From the NCBI GenBank assembly GCA_963666285.1, contig OY762711.1: DNA of 64,000 nt; one strand, 5' to 3'. This DNA comes from Sedimentisphaerales bacterium. Its GTDB lineage: Bacteria; Planctomycetota; Phycisphaerae; Sedimentisphaerales; SM23-30. Numbering within the stretch: the stretch's first letter is position 1; each line of letters begins with the position of its first letter. Shown here piece by piece: positions 11,677 through 56,907 of this stretch. A program made the translations under genes and the position numbers. The notes beneath the pieces were generated by a model, which made no database searches, was not told the origin of the DNA, and saw only the letters and a list, made by a program, of their open reading frames with translations.

Positions 11677-12206
11677 TCACATTAAGGATCAAAAAATTAG
11701 CATAAAAATATAAAACCATCATTCCATACAACATAAATATAATAATTATAATGATTTATATACATGACAATATTGTATGTTTTTTAAATTTAGATTTATC
11801 TGCCCCAAATCACTTTAGCCTATATCAGTCATCGAAAATATTAGCATGAACAATTTACTAATTTGTAAAAAATATACCTTCAACAAAAATATGAGGTGCT
11901 AAACAGATAACAGACACTTGTTGAGAGGTCTATATTCTAATATAAACAAGGAGAAGTTATCATTGGAAAATGTGTAAAATGCCATATAAGATAGATAGGA
12001 CAATATCTGAGAATATCCCCCACTCATCCTTGTCCAAAATCAGACAAACCTCCTCATCCACCCTGTCCAATTCGTGCCCAATTCCCCACTCAAATTTCCC
12101 CTCTCCCAAGTCAAAACTGCGTACACTTGCGCACACAGCCATTTTTTAGGGAATATTTAAAATAGAGAAAGCCTCATAAGTTATTTACTTACAAGGCTTT
12201 ATTAAG

Positions 12207-12251
12207 TACGCCATTTAGGACTCGAACCTAAAACCCACGGATTAAGAGTCC
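12207..12251 (-). pseudogene. 3' half of tRNA-Lys(CTT): att site (island boundary)
   Basis: Minus strand GGA-CTCTTAA-TCCGTGGG-TTTTAGGTTCGAGTCCTAA-ATGGCGTA gives anticodon loop, T arm and acceptor 3' strand; no D arm or acceptor 5' strand upstream. Confidence 0.85.
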
Positions 12252-41063: not shown

Positions 41064-41090
41064 CTCTACTCTAATTTTGGGGCAGAAGTA

Positions 41091-41156
41091 TTTATAAACC
41101 TTTTTATACTATTTAATTGGATTGGTTTAATAATAATTTGAAGTAATATTTATAAA
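41091..41156. promoter_or_regulatory. Divergent archaeal-type TATA promoters
   Basis: TTTATAAA at 41091-41098 (preceded by AAAAAGG on the minus strand, 27 nt before ATG 41063) and at 41149-41156 (22 nt before ATG 41179). Confidence 0.65.
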
Positions 41157-41178
41157 TTTAATATATTTAACAAAATGT

Positions 41179-42129
41179 ATGGATGAAGGAAATAATAAAC
41201 TTAATCATGTAATTTTATTGGATGGTGATTCTTCTGTTGACGGATTTCTTGGTGGAAAAGGTAAATCATTGCAAAAATTAAAAAGGGATGGCTTTCCATC
41301 TTTGCCAGGATTTGTTATTACTTATAGATATCTTAAAACTATTTTAGATTCCCCACAACTACAAAATGAATTAAGGAGCTTTGATGAGATCTCACACAAA
41401 GACTTAAAGTCCTTAAAAGAATTAAGCAAATCGATAACATCACAATTAGAGTCAATTTCAATTTCTGAATCTTTTAGAGAAGAAGTGTTTAAAGTATATG
41501 ATGATTTAAACTTATCTAAAGTGGCAGTTAGAAGTTCAGCTTTGATGGAAGACTCTTCTGCAAATTCATGTGCTGGATGCCTGGAAACGTTTCTTAATGT
41601 ATCAAAAAACGAACTAATAAAAAATATTGTTAATTGTTGGAAATCATTGTTTTCTTTAAGATCACTATATTATCTAAAATCAAAGAATATTCAATCTCAA
41701 GACCTTATTATGTCTGTTGTAATCCAAAAAATGGCAGAACCTCGTGTAGCTGGTGTTTGTTTTACAAGAAACCCTGTTACATCAAATCCGCATGAAATTC
41801 TTATTGAAGCCGGAATTGGTTTAGGGGAAGTAGTGGTCAATGGATCAATAACTCCGGACAGGTATATTGTTGACGAAAACTTTAATATATTATTAATAGA
41901 GGTTGGTAAGCAGGATACAATGATATCTACCAATAGTGATGGCATTGTAAACGAGAAATGTACTTTTGAAGAATCAGCTAGTCAAAAATTACCTGACAAA
42001 CATATAATTGAACTTTCTAGGATAGCAAAAGATATTGAAAAAGCAAATGGTATGCCTATGGATATCGAGTGGGCATTGACTGAAGTTGGGTTAATTATTC
42101 TTCAGGCAAGACCAATTACAACATTATGA
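41179..42129 (+). CDS. PEP/pyruvate-binding (PPDK_N, ATP-grasp) domain protein
   Basis: GGKG..L, VAVRSSA..ED..S.AG, GLGE.VV.G..PD, DIEWA...LQARPIT. Confidence 0.9.
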   Translation: MDEGNNKLNHVILLDGDSSVDGFLGGKGKSLQKLKRDGFPSLPGFVITYRYLKTILDSPQLQNELRSFDEISHKDLKSLKELSKSITSQLESISISESFREEVFKVYDDLNLSKVAVRSSALMEDSSANSCAGCLETFLNVSKNELIKNIVNCWKSLFSLRSLYYLKSKNIQSQDLIMSVVIQKMAEPRVAGVCFTRNPVTSNPHEILIEAGIGLGEVVVNGSITPDRYIVDENFNILLIEVGKQDTMISTNSDGIVNEKCTFEESASQKLPDKHIIELSRIAKDIEKANGMPMDIEWALTEVGLIILQARPITTL

Positions 42130-42762
42130 AATTTGTTGCAATACGTCAAAAACATCTTCAATAATTTTGATTTGTGCATCTGCATTACAATGGTTTGGGT
42201 TTTCATTGAATTCTATGCAAAACATATTTGCAGATTTTGCAGAGCATACTCCATACTCCGAATCTTCAATCACAACGACTTCATTATTACTTAGATTAAG
42301 TTGTTCTAGACAATTCAAATATGGTTGAGGGTCAGGTTTTAGAAGTTTACAATCATCTTTAGTTACAATTTTCTCAAAATAATGTATTAAGCCTTTTTCT
42401 TTCAATATTTCATAAACAAATTCTTTACTTGAAGATGTAACTAGGGCTAATCTATATTTTTGCTTTAAGCTTTCAAGAGTTTTGTGAACATTTGCCATTA
42501 TTTCAATATTTTCATAAAATGAATCAGAGTTGATTATTGTTATAAAAGACTTTTCTAGTTTGTCTACAATTTGAATGTTCAGATTATTATTTTGGACAAT
42601 ACTTCTAAATATATTTATAGAAGACATCCCCTTAAACACCCCCCAATTGATATTATTGGTGTTTATGCCATATTCGATACATGTTTCTTTTTGTGCTTTG
42701 GAGTAAGCATTCTCCGAATTTATAATTACTCCATCTAGGTCAAAAAGTATTGCTTTAATCAT
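42124..42762 (-). CDS. HAD-superfamily phosphatase (beta-PGM-like)
   Basis: FDLDGV, VTSS, KPDP, IEDS..GV motifs. Confidence 0.9.
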   Translation of the reverse strand: MIKAILFDLDGVIINSENAYSKAQKETCIEYGINTNNINWGVFKGMSSINIFRSIVQNNNLNIQIVDKLEKSFITIINSDSFYENIEIMANVHKTLESLKQKYRLALVTSSSKEFVYEILKEKGLIHYFEKIVTKDDCKLLKPDPQPYLNCLEQLNLSNNEVVVIEDSEYGVCSAKSANMFCIEFNENPNHCNADAQIKIIEDVFDVLQQIS

Positions 42763-43693
42763 TTAATTTCTTTAAGTATATCTTATCCGCTAAACAATTT
42801 TTTAATCCAGTCCTATGACATACTTTTGTTTCTGGAAATGGTATTTGTAAGTCTTTTGATATACTGATTCTTTTGTCCTGTGCAATTTGATAAAGGCATG
42901 GGATATAATAATCGTTGTAAATGTTTTTGAATCTGCATAGTTGGTTTTCTGATTGTTTTGGCAGATTATCCGTATATAAAACACCCTTTGTAAAAATGTC
43001 TAAATTCAATCTCCCTTCGTAAGTGTCAATTAGCTTTTGAATAATAGTATAATATTCATTAAATGGAATTATGTACTCTTGATTGTCATTCCAATAATCT
43101 TCCTCATCTCTAATTAGTCCGATTGTTAATGTTTCAATATTTGGCAAATTTGTTTCAACGTATTTTATGACTTCTGTAAGTTGGTTCTTATTATATTGAG
43201 TCATTAAAAATACTAATTTGACTTTGTAAAATTTAGAGTATTCGTTTATATTTTCTGTAATGTCTTTAAGTGGTTTGAATGATTTATCTTCTGCCTCTAA
43301 AGATTGGAAACTAATTCCTAGTTTGATATTTTTATGTTTTTTATCTAAATTACGCAATAAATACCCATTAGTATATACACCTACTGTTTTATTTTGAGAT
43401 TCAAGATATGTAATAAATTTATTTATATCTTTATGGATTAACGGCTCTCCGCCTTGTAAATCGTATTTCTCAATTTGTGGGTTATTTTCGACGATTTTTT
43501 TGATATGCCCTAAATCCATAACATTTCTTCTAGCCATACTTTTGTTATTAAAACAATAAGCACAATTTAGATTACAATCACTTGTTATAAATAGCAGAGC
43601 AGTTTTTGAATAATGCTTATATTGCTCTTTCCACCTATTTGGATCAATTCTTAATTTGAACCTTTTATGATTCTTATTTGCAACTTGCTCCAT
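42755..43693 (-). CDS. Radical SAM protein
   Basis: CNLNCAYC, GGEP, TNG; additional C-terminal cysteines. Confidence 0.9.
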   Translation of the reverse strand: MEQVANKNHKRFKLRIDPNRWKEQYKHYSKTALLFITSDCNLNCAYCFNNKSMARRNVMDLGHIKKIVENNPQIEKYDLQGGEPLIHKDINKFITYLESQNKTVGVYTNGYLLRNLDKKHKNIKLGISFQSLEAEDKSFKPLKDITENINEYSKFYKVKLVFLMTQYNKNQLTEVIKYVETNLPNIETLTIGLIRDEEDYWNDNQEYIIPFNEYYTIIQKLIDTYEGRLNLDIFTKGVLYTDNLPKQSENQLCRFKNIYNDYYIPCLYQIAQDKRISISKDLQIPFPETKVCHRTGLKNCLADKIYLKKLND

Positions 43694-43797
43694 TTATAAG
43701 TGGAATATCTATTACTTTATAAACATTATTAAGGCATTTGGATAAAACAGTGCCAATTAAAAGAAAACTTTTTAATAAGTTATATTTTGATATTTAT

Positions 43798-44916
43798 ATG
43801 GTCACTGTAGATGGAACAGAATTTAAGCTGATGGGATATGAACGCTTTTTTGAGGTACAGGGAGCTTCTTATTTATTTAGCAGTTTTTATGCAAAGCTTT
43901 ATTCTGATTTAGGATTACTTATTATCAATAATGATGGTTTCGTTTCATTATTTTTGGATAAAAATAAGGTATCAAAAAACCAAAGAGATTCTTTTGCATT
44001 TTATAGTAGTTTAGATGAATTTCAAAACTATCTTACTTCTTTCAAACAATTTCTTTCTGAATCAGACTCTTTTTTTGAATCAATATTGTCTAAAGAGAAA
44101 ATTACAAGCTTAGATTTAAATACTTATTTCAAGCAGATCATCAAATTCTTTAATTTCTATAAATGGACTGAATTCTTTTATAGCGACTATTCTTACATTG
44201 CTGTTAAAGATAATTCTACGCTAAAGAATGGTACACTTGAAAATAATTTATTGCAATTAGGGGAAATCAAAACAGATGGGAGAATTCTTTTGAATAAGAT
44301 ATTTAATAAATCCGATTCTTATTTGAATCGTTTTTTAGATAAAATTGCTAAACTTAAACCTATAAATAGGGATGATTTGAAACTGCTTACTTATTCAGAA
44401 ATTGTCATTTACTTTGATAACGGAGTAGTGCCAAAGATAGATAACAGAAAAAATGACTTTACATTATTAACAAGCCCAGGTCTGAATTTATTAAAAAACG
44501 CCCTACATCAGGATTTTATTACGGAATTCAAGGAGCAGACTTCAGACGTTGTTAAAGGAATAGTAGCTTGTGAAGGAGCTATTGAAGGTACTGTTAGAGT
44601 TTTAGATTTCAACTTTGATAATTTTGATATTCTATTTGATTTAATTAATGAAATGAATGATGGTGAAATATTGGTGGCAGAAACAACATCTCCTGACATA
44701 TTTCTTGCGTGCGAAAAAGCTTCAGCGATTGTTACTAATCAAGGTGGTGTAGGATCACACGCTGCAATTGTTAGCAGAGAAATGGGTATTCCGTGTATCG
44801 TTGGAACTAAAGATGCAACTAAAGTATTGAAAACTGGTGACTTGGTAAAAGTTGATGCGTTTAAAGGAGTAGTTCAATTTATCAAAAAAGTGCCAAGGAA
44901 TGAAGATGGAAAATAA
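43798..44916 (+). CDS. PEP-utilising enzyme, phosphohistidine mobile-domain protein (start revised to ATG 43798)
   Basis: GEILVAETTSP...GGVGSHAAIVSREMGIPCIVG; GAAAACTTTTTAAT box about 22 nt upstream of ATG 43798. Confidence 0.88.
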   Translation: MVTVDGTEFKLMGYERFFEVQGASYLFSSFYAKLYSDLGLLIINNDGFVSLFLDKNKVSKNQRDSFAFYSSLDEFQNYLTSFKQFLSESDSFFESILSKEKITSLDLNTYFKQIIKFFNFYKWTEFFYSDYSYIAVKDNSTLKNGTLENNLLQLGEIKTDGRILLNKIFNKSDSYLNRFLDKIAKLKPINRDDLKLLTYSEIVIYFDNGVVPKIDNRKNDFTLLTSPGLNLLKNALHQDFITEFKEQTSDVVKGIVACEGAIEGTVRVLDFNFDNFDILFDLINEMNDGEILVAETTSPDIFLACEKASAIVTNQGGVGSHAAIVSREMGIPCIVGTKDATKVLKTGDLVKVDAFKGVVQFIKKVPRNEDGK

Positions 44917-45364
44917 AATAATTGTTTTAGTTTCTTCTATTGCCATAAAAAATAACAAATTATTAATTGTACATAATAAATGGTCTGATGATAGATTTGG
45001 ATGGACTTTACCTTGTGGACATGTTGAACCAAATGAAAAGCTGGATGTAGCAGTTAAACGAGAATTTATGGAAGAAACTGGTTTACAACCATTAGAGCCG
45101 TTTAAGTTTGAGTTTTTATTACAAGTGAAAAAAGCTACAACAATGATTTATCATTTTTTTTATTCAATAACTAGATTTGATGGAGTTCCGCATGTAAACA
45201 ATGACCCTGATACTATCATTACTAATCTGGAATATTTTTCATTTTCAGAGGGTGTGTCTAAAATCTTATATGAAGATGTCAGATTTGCATTAAACAAATG
45301 GAACTCAAAAGAGACTGCTAGTCCATTATTTTATGACTTAACTACTCCTAGAGAACATTTATAA
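44900..45364 (+). CDS. NUDIX hydrolase
   Basis: GHVEPNEKLDVAVKREFMEETGL Nudix box. Confidence 0.9.
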   Translation: MKMENKIIVLVSSIAIKNNKLLIVHNKWSDDRFGWTLPCGHVEPNEKLDVAVKREFMEETGLQPLEPFKFEFLLQVKKATTMIYHFFYSITRFDGVPHVNNDPDTIITNLEYFSFSEGVSKILYEDVRFALNKWNSKETASPLFYDLTTPREHL

Positions 45365-45388
45365 AATATTTGAGACTCCATATTAGTT

Positions 45389-46906
45389 ATGAGTCCAGCA
45401 AAAAATGATTCAAGTGCAAGAGATGAATTGATGAGATACATTTCTGAGAAGGGATTGGTCTATGGCCCTAGCCCTAATATATACGAAGGTGGTGTTAGCG
45501 GATTTTATGATTTCGGCCCTTTAGGGAAATCATTAAAGAACAATATTGAAAATTCAATTAGAAAAGCATTTGATATCTTTTCTTTTTATGAAGTTGAATG
45601 TCCAATTGTTGTTCCTGAAAAGGTTTGGAAAGCCTCTGGTCATATTGATGGTATTTCTGATCCTATTGTAACTTGCTCTAAGTGTAATGCTGTTTGGAGA
45701 ATTGATAATTTAATAGAAGAGCAAAATTCTGATATTGATGCTGAAAACATGACTACTAAAGACATGTCTGATTTCTTATCAAACAATGAAGTTATTTGTC
45801 CTAGTTGTAAGGTTAGGTTGCCTTCTGAAGTAAAAGAACATAATCTTATGTTAAAGACAACAGTTGGTTTTGGGACTCCTATGTATAATAGACCTGAAAC
45901 AGCAACTACTACCTATTTACCATTCTTAGAGTATCTTAGATTTTTTAGAGATAAACTACCTTTTGGAGTCTACCAAATTGGAAATGCCTATAGGAATGAG
46001 ATTTCACCAAGACAGCATTTACTAAGAGGTAGAGAGTTTACGCAAGCAGAAGCACAGCTATTTCTTTTTAAGGATCAAAAAGAGAACTTTGCAAAGTTCG
46101 AAGAAGTTGCAGATCTGGAATTACCGTTTTTAACTGCTGATGCTCAATTTAATAATGGAAATGTAATTACAATGTCACTGGCTGATGCAATTACTAATAA
46201 GGTACTTAAAAATAAAGCTTATGCCTGGACGTTGGGGATGACTTATAAATTATTTAGAGATTTAGGAATTCCTCGTGAAAATTTAAGATTTAATCAACAC
46301 TTACCAGACAAGCTTGCTTTTTATGCTGATGATGCATGGGATTTAGAGGTGAAATTCAAAAGTTTTGGTTGGGTTGAATGTTGCGGTTGTCATGATAGAA
46401 CCGATTATGACTTAACAACTCATAGTAAATTTAGTGGTAAAGAGTTAGTTGCATTAAATTTGACTACAAACAAAAAGGAAACACCTCATATCCTTGAAAT
46501 TGCTATTGGGCCAAATAGGCTTCTTTTGGCTGTTTTAGACTTAAATTTAGATTTAGGAATTGAAGGTGTCAGTAAACCCAAGTTAAAGCTTCCATCAAGC
46601 CTTTCTCCTATTAAAGTAGCTATTTTACCATTGTCAAAAAAAGAGCATATATTGGAAAAATCCGAAGAGATTTATTTGAATTTGAACAAAAAGATGAGAG
46701 CTCAATTAGATGAATCTGGAAGCATAGGGAAAAGGTATTTAAGACAAGATTCTATAGGTACTCCTTTTTGTATCACTGTTGATTTTGATTGTTTAGAACA
46801 AGACAATGAGAATTATGGAAAAGTAACAATTAGAAATAGAGATTCAGAAAAACAAGAAAGGGTAAAATTTGACAATATTGAATCTTGGATTGCTACAAAG
46901 TTATAG
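45389..46906 (+). CDS. glyS: Glycine--tRNA ligase, alpha2 homodimeric, archaeal/eukaryotic type
   Basis: GFYDFGPLG, WKASGH, RPETA, RNEISPRQHLLRGREFTQAE, C-terminal anticodon-binding domain SIGKRY..QD.IGTPFCITVD. Confidence 0.92.
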   Translation: MSPAKNDSSARDELMRYISEKGLVYGPSPNIYEGGVSGFYDFGPLGKSLKNNIENSIRKAFDIFSFYEVECPIVVPEKVWKASGHIDGISDPIVTCSKCNAVWRIDNLIEEQNSDIDAENMTTKDMSDFLSNNEVICPSCKVRLPSEVKEHNLMLKTTVGFGTPMYNRPETATTTYLPFLEYLRFFRDKLPFGVYQIGNAYRNEISPRQHLLRGREFTQAEAQLFLFKDQKENFAKFEEVADLELPFLTADAQFNNGNVITMSLADAITNKVLKNKAYAWTLGMTYKLFRDLGIPRENLRFNQHLPDKLAFYADDAWDLEVKFKSFGWVECCGCHDRTDYDLTTHSKFSGKELVALNLTTNKKETPHILEIAIGPNRLLLAVLDLNLDLGIEGVSKPKLKLPSSLSPIKVAILPLSKKEHILEKSEEIYLNLNKKMRAQLDESGSIGKRYLRQDSIGTPFCITVDFDCLEQDNENYGKVTIRNRDSEKQERVKFDNIESWIATKL

Positions 46907-47047
46907 AAATTGTATTTCTTTCTTTTTAATTATCCTTCAAGAAGGATTGATAAATAAATGAAAGCTAGCATACCACTAGCCTTCACAAATGAAATTCTTC
47001 CAAAACTTTCCATATGAATATCAAATAAAAACTAAGAAAATAAGAGA

Positions 47048-47896
47048 TTAGTCTCTTTTTCTTCTACTTAAATATGTTAGAATTCCTGTTGCAGCCAAAC
47101 CTAATGTTCCTGGCTCTGGTACAATTGGAGTATAGTCTTCTGAAACCATCACTCTTCCTGCTCTTCCGCCAAAATCATCTCCCGCTAAGTACATATTACT
47201 ACCATCTATAGCAACATCAGTAAGATTTCCATAATCCCTTCCAAGCATATATTCAGCTACAATACCTTTACCAACTCCACCTTCTAAGATAGTTTGATTG
47301 TCAGTTGTAAACAAGAAAGGCATACTTGCCAAACTTGAACCTGTACCGTTACCAAGTCCAGTGATTGAGCTTGTACTATTAAAAGCAAGATCAGTAGTTG
47401 TGATTGAACCATTTAATAGATTAAGCAAATCTAATCTATAATCATTATTACCAAGACTTTTTACTAATGGAGCATAATCGCTTCCGTTTAATGAAAAAGC
47501 ATCACCAACACCCTTATATGCACTAGCTACACCAAATGAAGCATTATCGAACTCATTACTTCTATTATAAATTTCTAAATCTCCATTCTGAAGATCAAGT
47601 GCGTAATTAATACCATTTTTATTCCAATTACCAGTATCTTGTACACTACTTGCATTACCTACAGTAGTTTCAAAAGTTAAATCTTTTCCAGAATCTACAG
47701 CAGCACCACCAGTACCGCTAGCATAGATTTTATCATCAGTTGTAGTAATACCTACTAATGGACCAGGCAACAAAACATCCTTATCAATGTTTATTGTCTT
47801 TGTAAGTGCTGCATCTGCATTTGGGGCTCCGGCAATACCAGCAGCCAATAAAGCAAGCCCTGTAAGTGGCTTTTTTAGGAAATTTGGAGTTTTCAT
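47048..47896 (-). CDS. PEP-CTERM sorted surface protein
   Basis: Signal peptide; VPEPGTLGLAATGILTYLSRRKRD. Confidence 0.85.
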   Translation of the reverse strand: MKTPNFLKKPLTGLALLAAGIAGAPNADAALTKTINIDKDVLLPGPLVGITTTDDKIYASGTGGAAVDSGKDLTFETTVGNASSVQDTGNWNKNGINYALDLQNGDLEIYNRSNEFDNASFGVASAYKGVGDAFSLNGSDYAPLVKSLGNNDYRLDLLNLLNGSITTTDLAFNSTSSITGLGNGTGSSLASMPFLFTTDNQTILEGGVGKGIVAEYMLGRDYGNLTDVAIDGSNMYLAGDDFGGRAGRVMVSEDYTPIVPEPGTLGLAATGILTYLSRRKRD

Positions 47897-47992
47897 TTTA
47901 TTATAACCTCTTTTGGTTTATGTTGTGGAATCAGACATAGTTTATATATCTTCTCCTTTTAACTATTCCTATGTGACTACACCCTGAATCAG

Positions 47993-48639
47993 TTAAAGCA
48001 TTAGTCGTTCTAAAGCCATATCAGCATCAGAATCCATCACATCTGCATATACTTGCGTTGTTGTAATCCTGGAATGACCAAGCTGTTTTTGGACAAGTCG
48101 AAGGTTACAATCGCTTGCCTTATATAAAAAGGTAGCGTATGTATGCCGAAGACTGTGGATCGAATACTGCGAGTCAAGTTTAGCTTTTTTGGCACAACGC
48201 TTGAAAGCTTTCTGTAAGGCTCTGGTGGTCAAATGCCCGCCTGTCCTGGTAGATATAAGTAAAGGTGCATCTGCATCTGTTGGTTCGCCAACGCTTTCTT
48301 TCCATTTCAGAAACTGAATACAGAGTCGCTTTACCTTTTTGGGCATAAATACCAAACGCTGCTTGCCGCCTTTACCATTTCTAACAAGAAGTGCCGGCTT
48401 TTTTGTATTGTTCAAATACATATCACCGCATGTTAAAGCTGCAAGCTCCATTACCCGAAGTCCGGTACTGATGGTTAGATGTGATACAAAGAAATCCTTG
48501 TATGCAACTCGTTCAGTGTAGGTCTGCGGTATCCTTGCATCCTTTTTGGTGATTTCTAGCAGCCACAAAGCCTCATTTCTGTCCAAAAACTTGTTTGGTG
48601 TCAGAATCCAATCATCCGAAATTAAGTTTTTTTATACAT
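47993..48639 (-). CDS. Xer-like tyrosine recombinase (catalytic domain only); 5' end out of frame at an A7 tract
   Basis: TGLRVMEL, GKGGKQR, HSLRHTYA, QLGH, TTQVY; AGGAG + ATG 48639 is one nucleotide out of frame with WILTPNKFLDR... Confidence 0.88.
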
Positions 48640-48659
48640 ATTCAATTCTCCTATAATCG

Positions 48660-48893
48660 AGTTCACATTTGGCGAGAAATATGAACTGAATAAAGAAGAC
48701 TTGACTTATTTAAATAATTGACTATAAAGGAGATAGGGCTTTTTGAGAGTCTTAATGAATTGAAGACAGCTTAACTAAATTAACACTGGAGAAATGTTAA
48801 AAATAGCCTATTATGGGCTGTAAAGTTGAAATTCTAAATAATTTGAAAATATGAAAGAAAAAACCAGTTCATATTTCTCGCCTTATATGAACT
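48660..48893. promoter_or_regulatory. Inverted pair of dif-like 11-6-11 recombination sites enclosing a sigma70-like promoter
   Basis: AGTTCACATTT-GGCGAG-AAATATGAACT (48660-48687) and AGTTCATATTT-CTCGCC-TTATATGAACT (48866-48893); TTGACT-N16-TATAAA at 48701-48728. Confidence 0.8.
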
Positions 48894-49283
48894 GGCTGGT
48901 CTCCGATTATACCAAATTTAGCCCGATTTCTAATCAATAAAAATAAGGATTTATAGAAGATTTTCACTATTTCTTATGAATTCTAACGAAAAAATAGCTT
49001 GTGTCTTAGAACTGCTTGCTGTTAAAATAACTAATGGAAATACAGTAATTTCTGTTATAGCAGTTATTTTGGGAATTATTACTGTAGATTAGGTTGAGAT
49101 TCGACTGGGATTCGGTCGGATTACTACAAGCAAAATATATATTATTCCAACGCATAAGTTAAGTTTATACGCTTTTGAAAGCATAAAACTTGATGAATAC
49201 CATACGAGAAGTATTATGTGTAGAAGTCGGGATATTGGAATATCCCGGAATTTAATATTATTTCCTTCGTAAAGGAGACCATT

Positions 49284-52200
49284 ATGAAAGTGATCCGTTT
49301 GTTAGTGTTACTACTGTGCTTAGCAACTGTAGTATCTGCTCAAAATACAGCACCCCTTACTATTCAGGCAGCACCAATGTCTGGGGGAGCTTCATCTTAC
49401 CCACCTGTTCCATTTGACACAAATAAATCTTTTCTGATATATACCACTGATAATGGTGATTTAGTTTCAGCGATGAATTATTATGGTTTGTCATACACTA
49501 CTCGTTCTGCTTCACAACCAGTTACTCTAAATGACTTAAATACCCATGATGTCCTTATTGTTGGATGGAATACTAGTGATAGTCCAACAACAATGTCAGG
49601 CTTAGACCCTGATATAATCTATTCAGGAATAACAGGAAGAGCTGTAATTACTGGTCATGATGCGGATTATCATGTTACTCATTCTCCCGAAGCTGGTAAT
49701 GAAGTTTTTGAACAAATGATTAAATTTGCTCTTGATGGTGTAGGTACTGGACTTGTTGCTTTTGGTGACGATAAACGTGATTTTGAATGGTTGCCAGAAG
49801 AATGGGAAATAGTAGCAGACCATGCAGATGAGGGCGAATATGTTGACAGCATAACTGAAGAAGGACAAAGTAGTGGAATTTATGACAATCTAAAAGCTCA
49901 TGCAGAAACTGGTGATCCCACCGGCATTATGTACCTTTCAAATTGGAGTAAATCATATCATAATATATTTGAAAGCTGGGGAAATGGTTTTGAACCTTTT
50001 GAACTACAAAGTAGCACTGGTAATGACGCTGTAACAATTGGAACGCCTTTTAATGCTAATGGCTTTATTTTTACAAAAGAAGACGATGTTGCTGATGATA
50101 GTTGCGTATCTCCTGAAGATGATTTAACATACACAATCTGCTACAACAACACTTCTGGTATTACTATTTATAACGCTAAAATTGTTGACTATCTGCCTAA
50201 AGGTGTTACTTACCCAGAGGGTTTCTGGAGTATTGATGGGGATATGAACCCTATACCACCAGATCCTGCGTATGATCCAAACTTCCATACTTACACTTGG
50301 GATATTGGTACTATTATACCAGATGAAGACCCCAATGCTCTGCATTGTGAATCATTAGATGTCGTTGTAAATGAAAATGCTATTCCAGGCATGACGCTTT
50401 ATAATGAAGCATGGCTTATTGGCGAATATGAAATCATAGACCCTAATTCAAGCGACCCGAATAATCCCAGTACTCTACTTGTCGAAAGAGTATTTGCTAT
50501 TGCAACAGAAGAAACTGATGTATGCTGTTGGACAACACCAACACCAACACCAAATATTATATACGTTGATAAATATGCAACAGGTGCAGATACAGGAATA
50601 GATTGGGAAAATGCCTATAATACAGAATTTGGTGTAAAGAAAGCACTAGTTCAAGCGTGGGAATCAACTTGTAGTGGCCCTTTCACAATCTATGTAGCTG
50701 AAGGAACATACTTACCTGGTACTGATTATGTGGATAGTTTTGATCTTCCAGAGGGAACTAAAGTCTATGGCGGTTTCTTAAGCGGTGGTTGTGAATTCAA
50801 TAGTAGAGACCCTAAAGGATATGAAACTAGATTGTCAGGCTATTTAGCTCAAGCTGACGCTTTGCATTTAGTTACAATGGGACATAATACTTTACTGGAT
50901 GGTTTCACTGTAGAGAGTGCTTCAGATACGCTTATTTCAGGTGAAGGTGCCGACTTTACTGTTGAAAACTGTGTTATTAAAGATAGTTGGCAAACAGGTG
51001 TTTATGCTGAAGGATGTAATGTCACTATCAAATATTGTTTGATTAAAAATAATGGTGAGCATGGTATCTACCATCAAGGTAGTGAAGTTCTTAATTTTGA
51101 ATTAAATATATTTAATTCATGGATAATGAGAAATGAAGAACATGGCATACAATGCCTATATTCAACACCTACTATAAAAAACAGCATAATATCTGAAAGT
51201 GATATGGCTACTGATGGTAAAGAAGGTATTAGAGTTACTAATCCATTCCAAAAACCCATTATATACAATAACACAATTTCAAATAACAAAGGAAAAGGAA
51301 TATATTTTGAGGATGATGGCAATGCTAGTGGCGACCCAAATGACGTAAGCCTTGATTATCCTGATATCCAGAATTGTATTGTATATTACAATAACAATAA
51401 CCTAGTGCAAATGGAAGGATTCGACCCAAATACTAATGTAGCCTATAGTTGTATACAAAACTGCTTTGAGGTTAATAACAACATAAACGCTGCACCATTA
51501 TTTGCTTATCCAGTTAATCCATTAGGTGCACCTGACCCAGATAATTATCATCTTGCTCATAACTCAATATGTCGCGATATGGGAAGTCCTTACCTTGATT
51601 ATTCTAGTCAAGTAGATTATGACAAAGAAATTCGTGTTGCAGGCATTAAGGTAGATATTGGAGCTGATGAGTTATATAGCTGTGACGGTGACTATACTGA
51701 AGATGATTTCTCAAACGATGCCGATTGGAATGCTGATGGTATTGTAAATATGTACGAGTTCAGCATATTTGCAGGTTCCTGGCTTACTAATGACCCCAAT
51801 AGTGTCGCAGGCCAGGCAGACCCCAACAGCACAATAGGTTGGGATTCAAGATGCAATTTTGATGACACTAGTAGTAGTGCCGACACCATTGATATCGCTG
51901 ACTTTGCATTCTTTATTGGTGAAGTTCCATGGCTCTGGAAAGCTTGCTGGTATGATAATTACCAAGCAGTAATGGGGGGCGAAGCTGCTATGATGTCTAC
52001 ACCTGAAACTATATCTTTAATGACTGTTGAACCAGTTGCTAGAGCAATGGCCATGACATCATTTAATACCGACACTGGGCCCACCAAAACAGGAGTGGTT
52101 GGAAAAGCTGATCCATACAGTTATTTGACAAATGAACAACTAGCTATATTTGTAAAAGATATCTATGAAATTGAAGGTATGGTAATAGAGCAAATTGAGG

Positions 52201-52289
52201 CTGGAAGTGAAGATAAAGAAGATTTAACGGAAATATTGGTTTTCTTTGATGAAATCTTGGTTGATATTCAAGAAACTTTAACCAAATAG
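49284..52289 (+). CDS. Secreted protein with DUF11-like domain, right-handed beta-helix and dockerin-like motif
   Basis: Signal peptide; AGGAG SD; IVDYLPKGV; IIYVDK.ATG...W.NA; IDIADFAFF; recurrent DPN motifs. Confidence 0.8.
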   Translation: MKVIRLLVLLLCLATVVSAQNTAPLTIQAAPMSGGASSYPPVPFDTNKSFLIYTTDNGDLVSAMNYYGLSYTTRSASQPVTLNDLNTHDVLIVGWNTSDSPTTMSGLDPDIIYSGITGRAVITGHDADYHVTHSPEAGNEVFEQMIKFALDGVGTGLVAFGDDKRDFEWLPEEWEIVADHADEGEYVDSITEEGQSSGIYDNLKAHAETGDPTGIMYLSNWSKSYHNIFESWGNGFEPFELQSSTGNDAVTIGTPFNANGFIFTKEDDVADDSCVSPEDDLTYTICYNNTSGITIYNAKIVDYLPKGVTYPEGFWSIDGDMNPIPPDPAYDPNFHTYTWDIGTIIPDEDPNALHCESLDVVVNENAIPGMTLYNEAWLIGEYEIIDPNSSDPNNPSTLLVERVFAIATEETDVCCWTTPTPTPNIIYVDKYATGADTGIDWENAYNTEFGVKKALVQAWESTCSGPFTIYVAEGTYLPGTDYVDSFDLPEGTKVYGGFLSGGCEFNSRDPKGYETRLSGYLAQADALHLVTMGHNTLLDGFTVESASDTLISGEGADFTVENCVIKDSWQTGVYAEGCNVTIKYCLIKNNGEHGIYHQGSEVLNFELNIFNSWIMRNEEHGIQCLYSTPTIKNSIISESDMATDGKEGIRVTNPFQKPIIYNNTISNNKGKGIYFEDDGNASGDPNDVSLDYPDIQNCIVYYNNNNLVQMEGFDPNTNVAYSCIQNCFEVNNNINAAPLFAYPVNPLGAPDPDNYHLAHNSICRDMGSPYLDYSSQVDYDKEIRVAGIKVDIGADELYSCDGDYTEDDFSNDADWNADGIVNMYEFSIFAGSWLTNDPNSVAGQADPNSTIGWDSRCNFDDTSSSADTIDIADFAFFIGEVPWLWKACWYDNYQAVMGGEAAMMSTPETISLMTVEPVARAMAMTSFNTDTGPTKTGVVGKADPYSYLTNEQLAIFVKDIYEIEGMVIEQIEAGSEDKEDLTEILVFFDEILVDIQETLTK

Positions 52290-52300
52290 CACTTGATTTT

Positions 52301-52332
52301 ACCTGCCGTCATTTGATAGAATGGCGGTGGGT
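52301..52332 (+). terminator. Hairpin after the 49284-52289 gene
   Basis: ACCTGCCGTCATT...AATGGCGGTGGGT followed by T-rich sequence. Confidence 0.5.
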
Positions 52333-52368
52333 AATTTTATTTATACAAACAACTTACAGGAGAGAAAT

Positions 52369-53007
52369 ATGAAAATAATGTTATTGGTGGTTATGGTATT
52401 ATCACAACTGAGTTTCGCAGGTTATTTTGATGCAAACCATGTAACAGAAGATGGTTTACTTGAAGATGGTGAATATGGCATTGCAGCAAGAGTTGACGGT
52501 TCTAGTACTTTGACTGTTACTGGTGGTGGTGCAGAAAGCATAGATATTTTGGGTAGTGCTCATTTAGATGTAATATCGACCAAAATTCCTTTATCTGATT
52601 CTTATAATGGAGGTGGAGGAATTTATGATATTAATGTCGAGAATTACGCCTCACTTACTTTTTCTGGTGGAGTTGTAGATAGCATTGAAATTTATAATAA
52701 TGCTACAGCAATACTTAATGGTGGAACAATAAACTCACTTGAAATTTATCAATATGGCTCTTTAGGCCAAACAGTAAGAATCGAATGCTGTGATGGTTGG
52801 AGCTGGATTTATGGTATAGAACAACAAATCAAAGGAATAACGGGTAATTGGCAAAATGGAACTCCATTCTCTATTGATTTTATAGATGCAATAAGACGAC
52901 CAGATCTTAACCCACCAGTACATACTCATGTTGAAGTTGTAACTCCTGAACCTGCATCTTTACTGATGCTCGGCCTTGGTGGATTAGTCCTTAGAAAACG
53001 AAAATAA
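52369..53007 (+). CDS. PEP-CTERM protein
   Basis: AGGAG + ATG 52369; TPEPASLLMLGLGGLVLRKRK. Confidence 0.88.
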   Translation: MKIMLLVVMVLSQLSFAGYFDANHVTEDGLLEDGEYGIAARVDGSSTLTVTGGGAESIDILGSAHLDVISTKIPLSDSYNGGGGIYDINVENYASLTFSGGVVDSIEIYNNATAILNGGTINSLEIYQYGSLGQTVRIECCDGWSWIYGIEQQIKGITGNWQNGTPFSIDFIDAIRRPDLNPPVHTHVEVVTPEPASLLMLGLGGLVLRKRK

Positions 53008-53028
53008 ATCGAATTTGGAGTGTGCCTT

Positions 53029-53790
53029 ATGAAATACATAATTATAATGTTATGTTTATGTTCGTCAATTTTTGCAGCAAACTTTGATTACGTTGTTTCT
53101 AATGAATATCGCAATGAAACTATGATGTTGCTAAATGAGTCTTTATTAGTTGAAAATGGTGGTGTTAGTGTAATCAAAGCATATGGGAATGAAACATATG
53201 TTAAAGTTACAAGTACTACTTCCTATTCATATCAAGAAGGCGGGATTGGTGGTATAAATATATTTGATAGTAAAGTTGATATTGATAGCGGTGATGTTGG
53301 AAACATCATTACAGAACGATCTAGTACACTTATTTATAATGCTGGCAATTTAGACTGGATACATGTTAAAGACAGTAGCACTGTAAACTTCCATGATGTT
53401 AATTTTACAAACGCACATGTTTACGATAATAGTTCATTTCACATGAGTGGTGGGCATGCTGACTATATGTTTATATTAGATAATTCATCAGTAACATTAT
53501 CTGGTGGCAATATAGATACCATTCGCAATACTCAGTTTGTATCTTTAAGCGAGGATATTAGTTTTAATATTATATGTAAAGATTGGTCTTGGAACGATGA
53601 AACTAATATGCTTAGTGGACATTGGGAAGATGATTCAACTTTCAATATAAAATTAACAGATACAGAATGGGAAGATGATACGCCATATGTATTGTTTGAC
53701 CAAATAGATTTTACTATAGTACCTGAACCCACTTCTTTAACTTTTGCTGCAATTGGCGGTTTAATACTAAAGAAAAGATACAAGAAATAA
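53029..53790 (+). CDS. PEP-CTERM protein, paralogous to the preceding gene
   Basis: GGAG + ATG 53029; VPEPTSLTFAAIGGLILKKRYKK; shared G.W.(N/D)..F.I motif. Confidence 0.88.
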   Translation: MKYIIIMLCLCSSIFAANFDYVVSNEYRNETMMLLNESLLVENGGVSVIKAYGNETYVKVTSTTSYSYQEGGIGGINIFDSKVDIDSGDVGNIITERSSTLIYNAGNLDWIHVKDSSTVNFHDVNFTNAHVYDNSSFHMSGGHADYMFILDNSSVTLSGGNIDTIRNTQFVSLSEDISFNIICKDWSWNDETNMLSGHWEDDSTFNIKLTDTEWEDDTPYVLFDQIDFTIVPEPTSLTFAAIGGLILKKRYKK

Positions 53791-53807
53791 TTTGACACTC
53801 AATTTTG

Positions 53808-53882
53808 GCTGGTGTGGTTCTGTTCAATTTCCCTTCTGAATCCCGACCATAACATCATAGAATGGGATCACACCGGCTTTTT
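53808..53882 (+). terminator. Long RNA stem-loop with U tract
   Basis: 18-bp stem (53808-53825 with 53860-53877), fully paired on the + strand with five G-U pairs; 34-nt loop; TTTTT. Confidence 0.6.
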
Positions 53883-54468
53883 ATCAATAATCTTTATGGC
53901 TAATGTTTTAAATATCTTCAGGTGACACATATGTCCTTTGTGTTCGGGAAGCGACCATGAAAGTCAGTTATACCTAGTTCAAGCAAGTATTGAAAATATA
54001 ATCGATTATCTCGAATTATCCTCAGAAATCATTATTTATGTCTTTTTCTGAACTTTTTAATTCAATTTATGAAATATGACCCTAATTTCAGGTTTGGGGA
54101 GAAAATACTCAATAGCAAAATAACGGTTGACAGAAAGCCTTAATAACTGTTAAATATAGCGTTATGTCAACGGAGCCGAAACTCCAGCCTCTTATTCCAT
54201 GAAATGCATAGTTAGAGTCAAAAATGAATGAAAAAATGATAAATTACGACTATTGATGTTCTAGCAATATATTTGAAAATTGCCCAATTTATGCTATATA
54301 AGCTTGCTCAAGAAAGCAAATTCCGGTCATAAGATTGAACAACATTGGAGGTTTCACCAGAAAGCTGTTGATCACTTTGTGAAAATGGGTCATTGGCAGA
54401 CAAAAAGATTTAAAAATCTGTACAAAGCAATTTGTTATATTATTTGCAGTTACGGAGATGTTTAATAT

Positions 54469-56907
54469 ATGGCGTTGAAAAAATCACAACTTTATAGTTC
54501 TTTATGGAAAAGCTGCGATGAGCTTCGTGGCGGCATGGATGCTTCACAGTACAAAGACTATGTTCTTACATTACTTTTCATGAAATACGTGACTGACAAA
54601 TCAGGTCAACGTGATTTTTTGATCGATGTTCCAAAAGGTGGTAGCTTCAATGATATGGTTGCCCTTAAGGGCGACAAAGAAATAGGCGATAAGATTAACA
54701 AGATTATCGGTAAATTGGCAGAAGCCAACGACCTTAAAGGTGTGATCAACGTCGCAGACTTCAATGACGAAGATAAGCTCGGCAAAGGCAAGGAAATGCA
54801 GGATCGCCTTTCAAAGCTGCTGGCAATCTTCAATGACCTTGATTTTAGTTCCAATCGTGCCGAAGGTGATGATTTACTTGGTGATGCCTATGAATATCTG
54901 ATGCGGCATTTTGCTACAGAATCCGGCAAAAGTAAAGGGCAATTCTACACTCCGGCAGAAGTGTCTCGTATCATGTCCAAGGTTGTGGGCATCGGGCCTA
55001 AGACAAGTCAGGACAAAACCATCTATGACCCAACATGCGGATCAGGTTCCTTGCTGTTGAAAGCTGCCGATGAAGCACCAAGAGGTTTAAGTATATATGG
55101 TCAGGAAAATGATAATGCTACATGGGCACTTGCAAAGATGAATATGATCTTGCATGGACACCCCACAGCTGACATATGGAAGGACAATACACTCTCTAAG
55201 CCGTATTTTAAGAATTCCGCTGGAGGCTTACAGGCTTTTGACTTTGCTGTTTCCAATCCGCCATTTTCAACAAAATCATGGTCGAGCGGCTTTAATCCCT
55301 CGAATGATAAATATGGGCGTTTTGAGTACGGTACTCCACCAGCTAAAAATGGTGATTATGCGTTTTTGCTTCATGTCCTTAAGTCCCTTAAAAGTACAGG
55401 TAAAGCGGCGATTATTTTGCCGCATGGTGTATTGTTCCGTGGTAATGCCGAAGCGGACATTCGAAAGAATCTGATAAAACATGGTTTTATCAAAGGCATT
55501 ATTGGATTGCCTGCTAACCTGTTTTACGGCACTGGTATTCCAGCCTGTATTATTGTGCTGGACAAGAACAATGCACATGCTCGTAGCGGTATCTTTATGA
55601 TTGATGCCAGCAAGGGCTTTATTAAAGACGGCAATAAGAATCGCCTTCGTGATCAAGATATCCATAAGGTTGTCGATTGTTTCAATAATCAGATAGAACT
55701 GGAACGATTCTCTCGAATGGTTCCGGTCAGCGAGATCTCAAGCCCTGCCAATGATTACAATCTTAATATTCCACGCTATATTGATTCCAGTGAGCCGGAA
55801 GATTTGCATGACATAGAAGCACATCTTCGAGGCGGGATTCCTAATCGAGACATTGATGCATTGGATGATTACTGGCAGGTTTTCCCTACTCTGAGAAAAG
55901 CGGTTTTCAAACATGGAGATCGTGCTGGTTATAGCTTGCCTAGAATTGAGAGCCGTGAGGTCAAGTCTGAAATTCTAGCACATGAGGAATACGGCGTTTT
56001 TGCTGATAAGGGTATGAAGATATTTACCCAATGGTGTGCCAAGCATGAACCTGCTTTAAAAGCTCTACGGAAAGGTTCCGTCGCGAAGAAAATCATCAAT
56101 GTGCTATCCGAGGATATCCTTGAAAGGTTTGAAAGGCTGCCGTTGCTTGATGAATATGATGCTTACCAGCGGCTGATGGACTATTGGATGGAGATTATGC
56201 AGGACGATGTTTATTTAATTACTGCTGAGGGCTGGGCAGAAGCTGCCAAACCAAGGGGCATCATTGATGACAAAGAAAAGAAGATCAAGGAATCGCCTGA
56301 TCTGGTTACCAAAAAGTCCAAATACAAGATGGATTTAATTCCACCATCTTTAATAGTAGCGAAATACTTTGCTGAAGAGAAAGCTGTAATTGATGAACTT
56401 CAAAACAAGGCGGAAGCTATTTCTCAAAAACTGGAAGAGTTTACCGAAGAGCATTCTGGGGATGAGGGCCTGCTGGAGGACGCCAAAACAGATAAAGGCA
56501 ACCTGACCAAGGCTTCCGTTACTGAACGGCTGAAAGAAATCAAAGGTGATGCTGATTTTGAAGACGAATACAAAGTATTGACGCAGGCATTGAAATTAAT
56601 TGAGTCGCTGGCAAAGGCCAACAAGGCTGTAAAAGATGCTCAAGAGAAGCTTGATAACAGAACGCTTGCTCAATACGGCTTACTTTCAATTGATGATATC
56701 AAAATCCTAGTCGTCAATGATAAGTGGTTAGCAAGCATGGAAAATGCTATTTCTGAAGAACTTGAACGGCTCATCCAAAAACTGGCTTCACGAGTAAAGG
56801 AGCTTGAGGATCGTTATGATGAAACATTACCTGAATTGACAAAGTTGGTTAATGATTATAGCAGCAAGGTCGAGGCTCATCTTGTGGAAATGGGGATGAA
56901 ATGGTAG
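54469..56907 (+). CDS. hsdM: Type I R-M methyltransferase subunit
   Basis: LWKSCDELRG, GQFYTP, YDPTCGSG, NPPF, YNLNIPRY. Confidence 0.95.
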   Translation: MALKKSQLYSSLWKSCDELRGGMDASQYKDYVLTLLFMKYVTDKSGQRDFLIDVPKGGSFNDMVALKGDKEIGDKINKIIGKLAEANDLKGVINVADFNDEDKLGKGKEMQDRLSKLLAIFNDLDFSSNRAEGDDLLGDAYEYLMRHFATESGKSKGQFYTPAEVSRIMSKVVGIGPKTSQDKTIYDPTCGSGSLLLKAADEAPRGLSIYGQENDNATWALAKMNMILHGHPTADIWKDNTLSKPYFKNSAGGLQAFDFAVSNPPFSTKSWSSGFNPSNDKYGRFEYGTPPAKNGDYAFLLHVLKSLKSTGKAAIILPHGVLFRGNAEADIRKNLIKHGFIKGIIGLPANLFYGTGIPACIIVLDKNNAHARSGIFMIDASKGFIKDGNKNRLRDQDIHKVVDCFNNQIELERFSRMVPVSEISSPANDYNLNIPRYIDSSEPEDLHDIEAHLRGGIPNRDIDALDDYWQVFPTLRKAVFKHGDRAGYSLPRIESREVKSEILAHEEYGVFADKGMKIFTQWCAKHEPALKALRKGSVAKKIINVLSEDILERFERLPLLDEYDAYQRLMDYWMEIMQDDVYLITAEGWAEAAKPRGIIDDKEKKIKESPDLVTKKSKYKMDLIPPSLIVAKYFAEEKAVIDELQNKAEAISQKLEEFTEEHSGDEGLLEDAKTDKGNLTKASVTERLKEIKGDADFEDEYKVLTQALKLIESLAKANKAVKDAQEKLDNRTLAQYGLLSIDDIKILVVNDKWLASMENAISEELERLIQKLASRVKELEDRYDETLPELTKLVNDYSSKVEAHLVEMGMKW

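Follow-up and report, generated by a model that had tools for sequence, protein, structure and literature searches.

The 64,000-nt stretch of DNA analysed here (the window) carries, upstream of a short tyrosine recombinase gene, a small segment that is best read from its sequence as an invertible transcription terminator gating the recombinase's own operon together with its cargo. This reading is given a probability of about two in three. Matched inverted 11-6-11 recombination sites and reversed copies of the segment are seen directly in the sequences, and the adjacent short recombinase likely flips the segment. The prediction places a fixed sigma-70 promoter immediately beyond the distal site, directed toward the recombinase. 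In the common orientation the arms of this site would form a hairpin, the segment would add a U-run, and the transcript would end after about 40 nt (OFF). After inversion the U-run would be gone, and RNA polymerase could read through to the recombinase and to a variable secreted or PEP-CTERM gene (ON). Recombinase made by ON cells would tend to turn the segment back, and its level would be held low by an out-of-frame leader ORF, to which the Shine-Dalgarno (SD) sequence belongs. Together this should make the ON state rare.

Recombination sites and segment of the window

The window corresponds to C1:3360001-3424000 of the genome. The proximal site (AGTTCACATTT-GGCGAG-AAATATGAACT, 48660-48687) is located 35 nt upstream of the family start position of the recombinase, and the distal site (AGTTCATATTT-CTCGCC-TTATATGAACT, 48866-48893) is inverted relative to it, its spacer being CTCGCC on the plus strand and GGCGAG when read toward the recombinase. 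As an earlier sequence-only reading had described, the sites are 28 bp long with 11-6-11 form, their spacers are exact reverse complements, an 18-bp perfect inverted repeat is formed by 48671-48688 and 48865-48882, and 178 bp separate the two. Also present as described are a TTGACT-N16-TATAAA motif on the plus strand (48701-48728; TTGACT at 48701-48706, TATAAA at 48723-48728) and an SD sequence AGGAGA on the minus strand (48647-48652). Measured from spacer to spacer, the segment (48671-48882) stands in the common, predicted OFF orientation, as scored against 75 other segments.

The site pair is the longest inverted repeat within 46500-50500 (29 nt, 90%). The site pattern was matched in the 64-kb window by these two sites only (four strand matches); shuffled controls gave a mean of 0.11 matches, and 0 of 100 reached four. 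A search of the complete 6.35-Mb genome with the family profile gave two inverted pairs with complementary spacers and no others; each immediately precedes one of the two full-length copies of the recombinase, and the window sites scored highest in the genome. No orphan switches were found elsewhere in this whole-genome search. The search for more copies of the site, which had been suggested before, was thus rewarded by one further inverted pair, situated before an intact paralog of the recombinase. This paralog module (L223, C1:2946131-2947800) has sites at 2946131 and 2946348 with the spacers GACGTG/CACGTC and arms similar to those of the window, a recombinase gene with ATG at C1:2946410-2947039 and, behind it, a PEP-CTERM gene. 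A third copy of the recombinase, a C-terminal fragment at C1:4086438-4086551 (66% over 38 aa), is without sites.

No flipped copy of the window locus was seen in the contigs of four runs, which show presence, not absence, and drop rare variants. Two of the runs (X1 and X2) come from one sample, possibly the source of the window; X3 covers the distal site only, and X4 holds nothing relevant. The contigs of X1 and X2 cross both sites unbroken at a depth of 22-27, without differences and without a strand-change joint. The segment is very likely invertible.

Occurrence of the module and both orientations in homologous loci

The module sits upstream of a catalytic-domain-only tyrosine recombinase of ~209 aa, mainly in Planctomycetota. 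For its analysis 170 loci (160 + 10) were collected; 60 loci on viral contigs, which held distant integrases only (best segments of 26-50% identity, mostly partial), were omitted as distant and excluded from all counts. The filters (at least 44% identity, N-terminus matched, more than 90 nt upstream) were passed by 146 loci. After removal of near-duplicates 113 were left, and 100 non-redundant loci had at least 330 nt upstream. The site profile was trained on proximal sites alone, with the spacer columns zeroed.

Both sites with a 6/6 inverted spacer match were found in 76 of the 100 non-redundant loci, window and paralog included, and direct-orientation pairs in none. One further locus had both sites but no spacer match, and 23 were below a threshold, three of these still with a 6/6 match. 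The 76 paired loci hold 37 distinct spacers and arms that are only 64% alike. Spacers of different loci matched in 276 of 5700 comparisons (4.8%); the loci are related, so that such statistics overstate. Among 31 further loci 25 were duplicates, and three of the six new ones were paired, all with 6/6 inverted spacers. Tyrosine recombinases need spacer identity for strand exchange, and spacers that are specific to the locus and always complementary are therefore the mark of selection for inversion.

Three of the loci below threshold (L014, L028, L046) keep the layout with different arm sequences. The same layout with other arms, e.g. ACGACACAT arms, is also present in L049 and L050, and these five loci form a natural test set for recombinase-arm specificity. 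In six other loci (L039, L038, L042, L025, L135, L152) the proximal site is decayed, and behind the gene, 720-855 nt beyond its start, another site is located. L039 has inverted matching spacers at -275 and +851, an arrangement in which the recombinase gene itself would flip.

Reversed segments with breakpoints at the spacers were identified in 3 of the 76 paired loci. In the clearest alignment, L095 against L084, 157 of 192 positions are identical with the segment reversed versus 100 of 212 as given, the outer arms are identical and the flanks are colinear. The corresponding values are 145/207 versus 110/231 for L031 against L120 and 126/206 versus 112/224 for L140 against L032, the weakest of the three. 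The three loci are placed in separate parts of the recombinase tree, and their nearest relatives are unflipped. This tree is a quick version, and its count of changes ignores ungrouped rows; therefore only placements and nearest neighbours were used. A fourth locus, L262, may also be flipped, although the indication is weak, and no flipped segment was found among 23 further pairs (duplicates and borderline loci). Inversion within the family is regarded as highly probable, and the linkage of gene and segment suggests that the adjacent recombinase performs it. A single orientation in deep reads and in homologous loci had been named by the sequence-only reading as an argument against a switch. 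One orientation is indeed what the contigs of the window locus show, but the homologous loci show both.

The distribution of the recombinase family is patchy. Own genome included, it is present in 29 of 401 genomes of the order, in 8 of 401 of the class and in 6 of 401 of the phylum, and none of the 24 other genomes from the host's family has it. Plasmids gave no match at 1e-20, and phages gave four records only, all under 33%.

Predicted promoter and terminator, and third dyad

In the 60 nt outside the distal site an inward sigma-70-type promoter was scored by consensus match in 45 of 67 loci, compared with 1-7 of 67 in seven control windows and with a mean of 6.8 and a maximum of 17 in 200 shuffles. 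The -10 element ends 9-13 nt from the distal site in 34 of the 45; no outside promoter was scored in the other 22 loci. The predicted fixed promoter of the window is an extended -10 sequence, TG-N-TATAAT, on the minus strand (48906-48914), 12 nt from the distal site and directed toward the recombinase. Its -35 element is poor, and it was missed by the promoter scan, which requires one.

The transcript from this promoter would run at once into the distal site, the minus-strand copy of which (48866-48893) doubles as the stem of a predicted intrinsic terminator (48854-48897). The arms of the site form a 13-bp stem with a loop of 10 nt, and the segment contributes U6-C-U3. The hairpin has a predicted energy of -15.8 kcal/mol (z -4.7), and none of 200 shuffles was as stable; after flipping the window in silico it is reduced to -10.8 kcal/mol and the U-run is gone. 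With a hairpin of -6 kcal/mol or lower plus at least 5 T of 8 as the criterion, the distal site is terminator-like in 58 of 76 loci in the common orientation and in 8 of 76 when flipped, and the proximal site in 2 of 76 and 1 of 76. Two of the naturally flipped loci, L095 (-8.9, 5 T) and L140 (-10.2, 6 T), are still terminator-like and belong to the eight. Since the common orientation brings hairpin and U-run together, recombinase and cargo are predicted to be OFF in the common state.

A third conserved dyad of 11-7-11 form (48709-48737) is located 21 nt inside the proximal site and overlaps the -10 element of the sequence-only reading. Of the 76 loci 56 have such a dyad 20-23 nt inward of the proximal site, against 2 of 76 in each control, and re-flipping the three reversed loci in silico puts it back at the usual 21-23 nt. 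It is likely the site of an accessory protein; that its binder is a directionality factor is a guess. An archaeal TATA box inside the segment was considered and rejected, as the TTTA-rich motif is one arm of this dyad. A second TTTATAAA motif is present in a 233-bp subfamily.

The internal TTGACT-N16-TATAAA motif is not conserved in the family and is possibly a secondary promoter of the window copy. In a clade of five loci (L016, L145, L151, L154, L157) an internal promoter replaces the outside promoter and the U-run; four of them (all but L157) have TTGACT-N17 promoters inside the segment which point away from the recombinase in the common state. One family would hold both terminator and promoter switches.

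Recombinase gene, leader ORF and Shine-Dalgarno sequence

The recombinase gene (47993-48625, minus strand) is open over 210 codons and encodes a catalytic domain only, with intact catalytic residues. It was assigned to the phage-integrase-family tyrosine recombinases (1960 hits of 2099 candidates for the ~209-aa family). R57, K85/K88, H157, R160, H184 and Y193 are invariant in 18 aligned sequences, and the predicted structure (pLDDT 76.7) has XerA 5hxy as its closest fold (TM 0.73).

In the window copy the family start ATG is replaced by TTA, and the next common start, TTG at 48586, would give a protein of 197 aa. It is one of 3 among 76 loci without an in-frame ATG at the family start, and its branch is long (0.77 versus a median of 0.18). 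A relative with 79% identity was likewise called at 197 aa; this may reflect an unusual start common to both, either ATT at 48622 or slippage in an A7 run, and not decay. The sequence-only reading had proposed an inversion assay with a frame-corrected recombinase, which mistakes the defect: a simple frameshift was rejected, and what is lost is the start codon behind the leader ORF of the family. An assembly error in the A7 run was rejected as well; the contigs show no gap, and they identify TTA in place of ATG as a real feature of the DNA. Given the missing ATG, flipping of the window copy is probably rare, or dependent on the intact paralog of the second island described below.

The SD sequence is spaced for an out-of-frame leader ORF, not for the recombinase start. 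This ORF (MYKKT-stop, with the A7 run; 48622-48639, minus strand) overlaps the start position of the recombinase. An out-of-frame start 14 nt before the true ATG is present in 49 of the 73 loci with a normal ATG, and in 41 of these 49 the SD serves the out-of-frame start alone; the product is often M-x-K-K-x-stop overlapping the true ATG. A leader ORF that owns the SD would keep the recombinase low. Moreover, the SD is predicted to pair with the segment end in the OFF state (unpaired 0.02 in the window, versus 0.79 ON). Over 66 loci the mean unpaired value is 0.31 OFF versus 0.54 ON, with 0.36 in the shuffled control (p 0.07), and this anti-SD layer is suggestive, not clearly beyond base composition.

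Predicted switched operon and flanking genes

The second gene of the predicted switched operon encodes a PEP-CTERM surface protein of 282 aa (47048-47896, minus strand), a homolog of which follows the paralog recombinase. A separate promoter-like match precedes this gene at 47929-47900, and a terminator-like hairpin (46958-46986, minus strand) closes the operon. Across the family 54 of 57 loci have the first gene past the recombinase in the same orientation as the recombinase, its identity varying by locus, whereas past the distal site the nearest gene may point away (33 loci) or toward it (25). Scored with a crude heuristic, 33 of 47 genes behind the recombinase are signal-peptide-like, compared with 72 of 467 other ORFs; for PEP-CTERM-like genes the counts are 11 of 47 and 11 of 467. 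Pfam searches of these genes gave PEP-CTERM, GLUG, FG-GAP, LamG, RCC1, Calx-beta and peptidase domains in some and nothing in 25 of 46.

Inversion had been expected by the sequence-only reading to redirect a promoter from the surface genes at 49284-53790 to the recombinase and the archaeal-type genes beyond it. Neither the surface genes nor the archaeal-type genes are supported as targets. The leader of the 49284 gene (48894-49300, plus strand) has its own extended -10-like site near 49020-49028 and a 77%-identical copy at C1:1256119-1256521, before a similar gene cluster and with no site pair; the genes at 49284-53790 therefore look independent of the switch, an outcome for which the same reading had allowed by noting a possible promoter near 49000. 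On the other side, the glycyl-tRNA synthetase (GlyRS) gene at the near end of the archaeal-type block faces the operon, and the operon ends at its closing hairpin, so that the block is not under the switch. The paralogous leader and surface-gene cluster spans C1:1256119-1264598. The homology starts precisely at the distal site's outer edge; the cluster is fused into a broken gene, and an IS3-like element (judged by eye) interrupts it. Behind the final surface gene of the window a structured repeat of ~95 nt (53794-53882) was observed, with 13 matches in the genome, including contigs C2-C4, which usually lie behind genes and end in a hairpin plus T-run. An Rfam scan of 46000-55000 gave one chance match only and none for this repeat.

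Genomic islands and archaeal-type DNA

The island that holds the switch measures ~66 kb and is delimited by an 84-bp direct repeat (94%) of a tRNA-Lys end. The left end of the island is at 12168-12251 (plus strand), and the tRNA-Lys end at C1:3438058-3438141 lies beyond the window; an integrase-like ORF is found beside the tRNA-Lys (motif judged by eye). A second island of ~40 kb at tRNA-Asn shares with the first a 4.6-kb block of HerA-like ATPase, methylase and wHTH genes (68%); the two islands also have in common the recombinase (59% aa) and the PEP-CTERM gene that follows it. Each island has direct repeats of its own tRNA end and, next to that tRNA, a further integrase-like gene, so that the short recombinase does not serve as island integrase.

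Inside the bacterial island of the window about 22 kb of low-GC DNA (31%; ~24500-46906) include split PPDK-like genes and a membrane-anchored protein of 2759 aa. Nearly all named neighbours of the GlyRS (45389-46906) are Nanobdellota, Woesearchaeota or Pacearchaeota proteins, and the host's own GlyRS is 31% identical. The block is apparently an inter-domain transfer from DPANN archaea, and a read-derived contig joins the GlyRS to the switch over 40000-49121. The second island carries similar-looking cargo. A HerA-like ATPase occurs in the islands of 13 of 76 paired loci and a Cdc6/Orc1-like AAA+ protein in eight loci; islands such as those of L031, L034, L045, L116, L119 and L136 carry HerA-like and Cdc6/Orc1-like genes or a ThiF/JAB/ThiS block, and some of these module contigs (L012, L031, L035, L042) are binned in archaeal MAGs.

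Alternative explanations

The idea of an invertible promoter, from which this analysis started, holds in part: inverted tyrosine-recombinase core sites are present and both orientations occur in homologous loci, but an internal promoter as the flipped element is not supported. In that form the internal TTGACT-N16-TATAAA would be turned from the genes at 49284-53790 to the recombinase. The motif exists, the internal promoters of L016, L145, L151 and L154, without outside promoter and U-run and in one clade with L157, suggest that such a design occurs, and L262 weakly resembles its ON state. A promoter at the proposed position is, however, found in 4 of 67 loci against 45 of 67 for the outside promoter; the -10 lacks its last T and falls inside the conserved dyad; outside promoter and U-run place the window with the main type; the leader of the 49284 gene has a switch-less paralog; and the genes beyond the distal site vary in direction. 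For the window the inverted promoter is improbable. Somewhat less improbable, though still unlikely, is a segment that flips and exerts control by protein binding or translation, with recombinase bound to the distal site blocking the promoter, or with the third dyad or SD pairing as the regulator. The distal site begins only a few bases after the predicted transcription start, the third dyad keeps a fixed distance of 21 nt, and the SD is predicted to be paired in OFF. A U-run beside the distal hairpin and not the proximal one (58 versus 2 of 76) speaks for termination instead, and the SD pairing does not clearly exceed base composition. Attachment, dif-like or resolution sites serving integration, excision or dimer resolution, with no switch, would agree with the Xer-like 11-6-11 form, with the XerA/XerC/XerD catalytic domains as best profile and structure matches and with the transport of the module in genomic islands. 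This reading is largely refuted and very improbable, as the pairs are always inverted and never direct, both islands own tRNA-end repeats and a separate integrase-like gene, and reversed segments exist.

An invertible terminator in the family is compatible with a further possibility, which concerns the window copy only: its recombinase may no longer be made, leaving the segment a relic frozen in OFF. The change of ATG to TTA, shared in kind by few loci, the long recombinase branch and the single orientation in the contigs point in this direction. The frame, on the other hand, is open over 210 codons with all catalytic residues kept; the sites score highest in the genome and retain the perfect 18-bp repeat; promoter, hairpin, U-run, third dyad and leader ORF are all retained; the 79%-identical relative is also called at 197 aa; and an intact paralog with similar arms is present in the same genome. 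The odds of a relic are put at somewhat less than even, and it is rather doubtful that the window copy still switches on its own.

Comparison with known systems

In C. difficile cwpV (Cdi1), as described, a ~195-bp segment lies between a fixed upstream promoter and the gene, the OFF state consists of a stem-loop plus poly-U at the junction of left repeat and segment, the target is a surface protein, ON is the minority at about 5%, and the unlinked RecV flips the segment (PMC2784873; PMC5903667; PMC5386303). The module resembles the cwpV switch of PMC2784873 in its reversed segments (3 of 76 homologous loci), in a promoter outside the segment (consensus match, 45 of 67) and in an intrinsic terminator in one orientation (predicted, 58 versus 8 of 76). 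It differs from the switch described there in that recV is unlinked and ungated, whereas here the recombinase is adjacent and downstream in all paired loci, as the first gene of the gated operon (PMC2784873). Moreover, it is the core site whose dyad here forms the stem, the sites are of 11-6-11 form with locus-specific spacers, and the whole is a mobile module of Planctomycetota with variable cargo (compare PMC2784873).

E. coli fimS is flipped by FimB and FimE, and its orientation is reported to feed back on fimE via a detachable terminator (PMC9993118). As in fim, a tyrosine invertase of ~200 aa adjoins a small invertible segment, and a segment-borne terminator would feed back on recombinase output (PMC9993118). 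In the account of fimS the promoter is inside and a Rho-dependent terminator is 3' of fimE, unlike the outside promoter and the predicted intrinsic terminator 5' of the recombinase found here (PMC9993118). A promoter inside the segment was scored in 1-7 of 67 loci in the internal windows, and the five-locus clade is fim-like in this respect. The recombinase does not belong to the FimB/FimE family (27-40 bits against cut-offs of 221-222), nor is it an IntI-family integrase (80-82 bits versus 265). The 11-6-11 core site is shared with Xer/dif, and by profile and fold XerA/XerC/XerD have the closest catalytic domain. In contrast to these proteins the N-terminal core-binding domain is absent, matches starting at profile position 95-134 with 96-136 bits versus 220-335; and unlike dif, one chromosomal site for dimer resolution, there are two inverted pairs inside tRNA-integrated islands. 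Salmonella Hin is a serine recombinase; like the Hin switch, L039 and probably L038 enclose the recombinase gene in the segment that inverts, whereas it is outside in the window and the 76 loci.

In Lactobacillus, recombinase transcription in one orientation has been proposed to destabilise a variant (PMC9881135), and the main text of a classification of tyrosine recombinases does not mention Planctomycetes (PMC8138268). No published account of the module was found in the literature searched; inverton lists in supplements could hold these loci.

Implications

What appears to be new, as far as the sequences and the literature found allow, is a recombination site that would serve as terminator stem and a gated operon that starts with the recombinase. 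A more far-reaching reading, tentative and on balance unlikely, is that of a portable self-gating cassette, in which one 28-bp element acts as recombination site, terminator stem and operator and the recombinase switches its own gene and a surface gene on and then off. If true, islands of Planctomycetota, which also carry DPANN-archaeal DNA, would give acquired surface genes a rare, self-limiting ON pulse; the module would serve bet-hedging as an integron-like platform, and its spacers, at least 37 in number, would be a natural orthogonal set for a compact invertase. With its natural variants of spacer and arms, the 209-aa invertase may be useful in genetic memory circuits. The module is widespread, with at least 76 non-redundant loci, and would be the first phase-variation system for planctomycetes of the Phycisphaerae type, tying PEP-CTERM and other surface proteins to bet-hedging.
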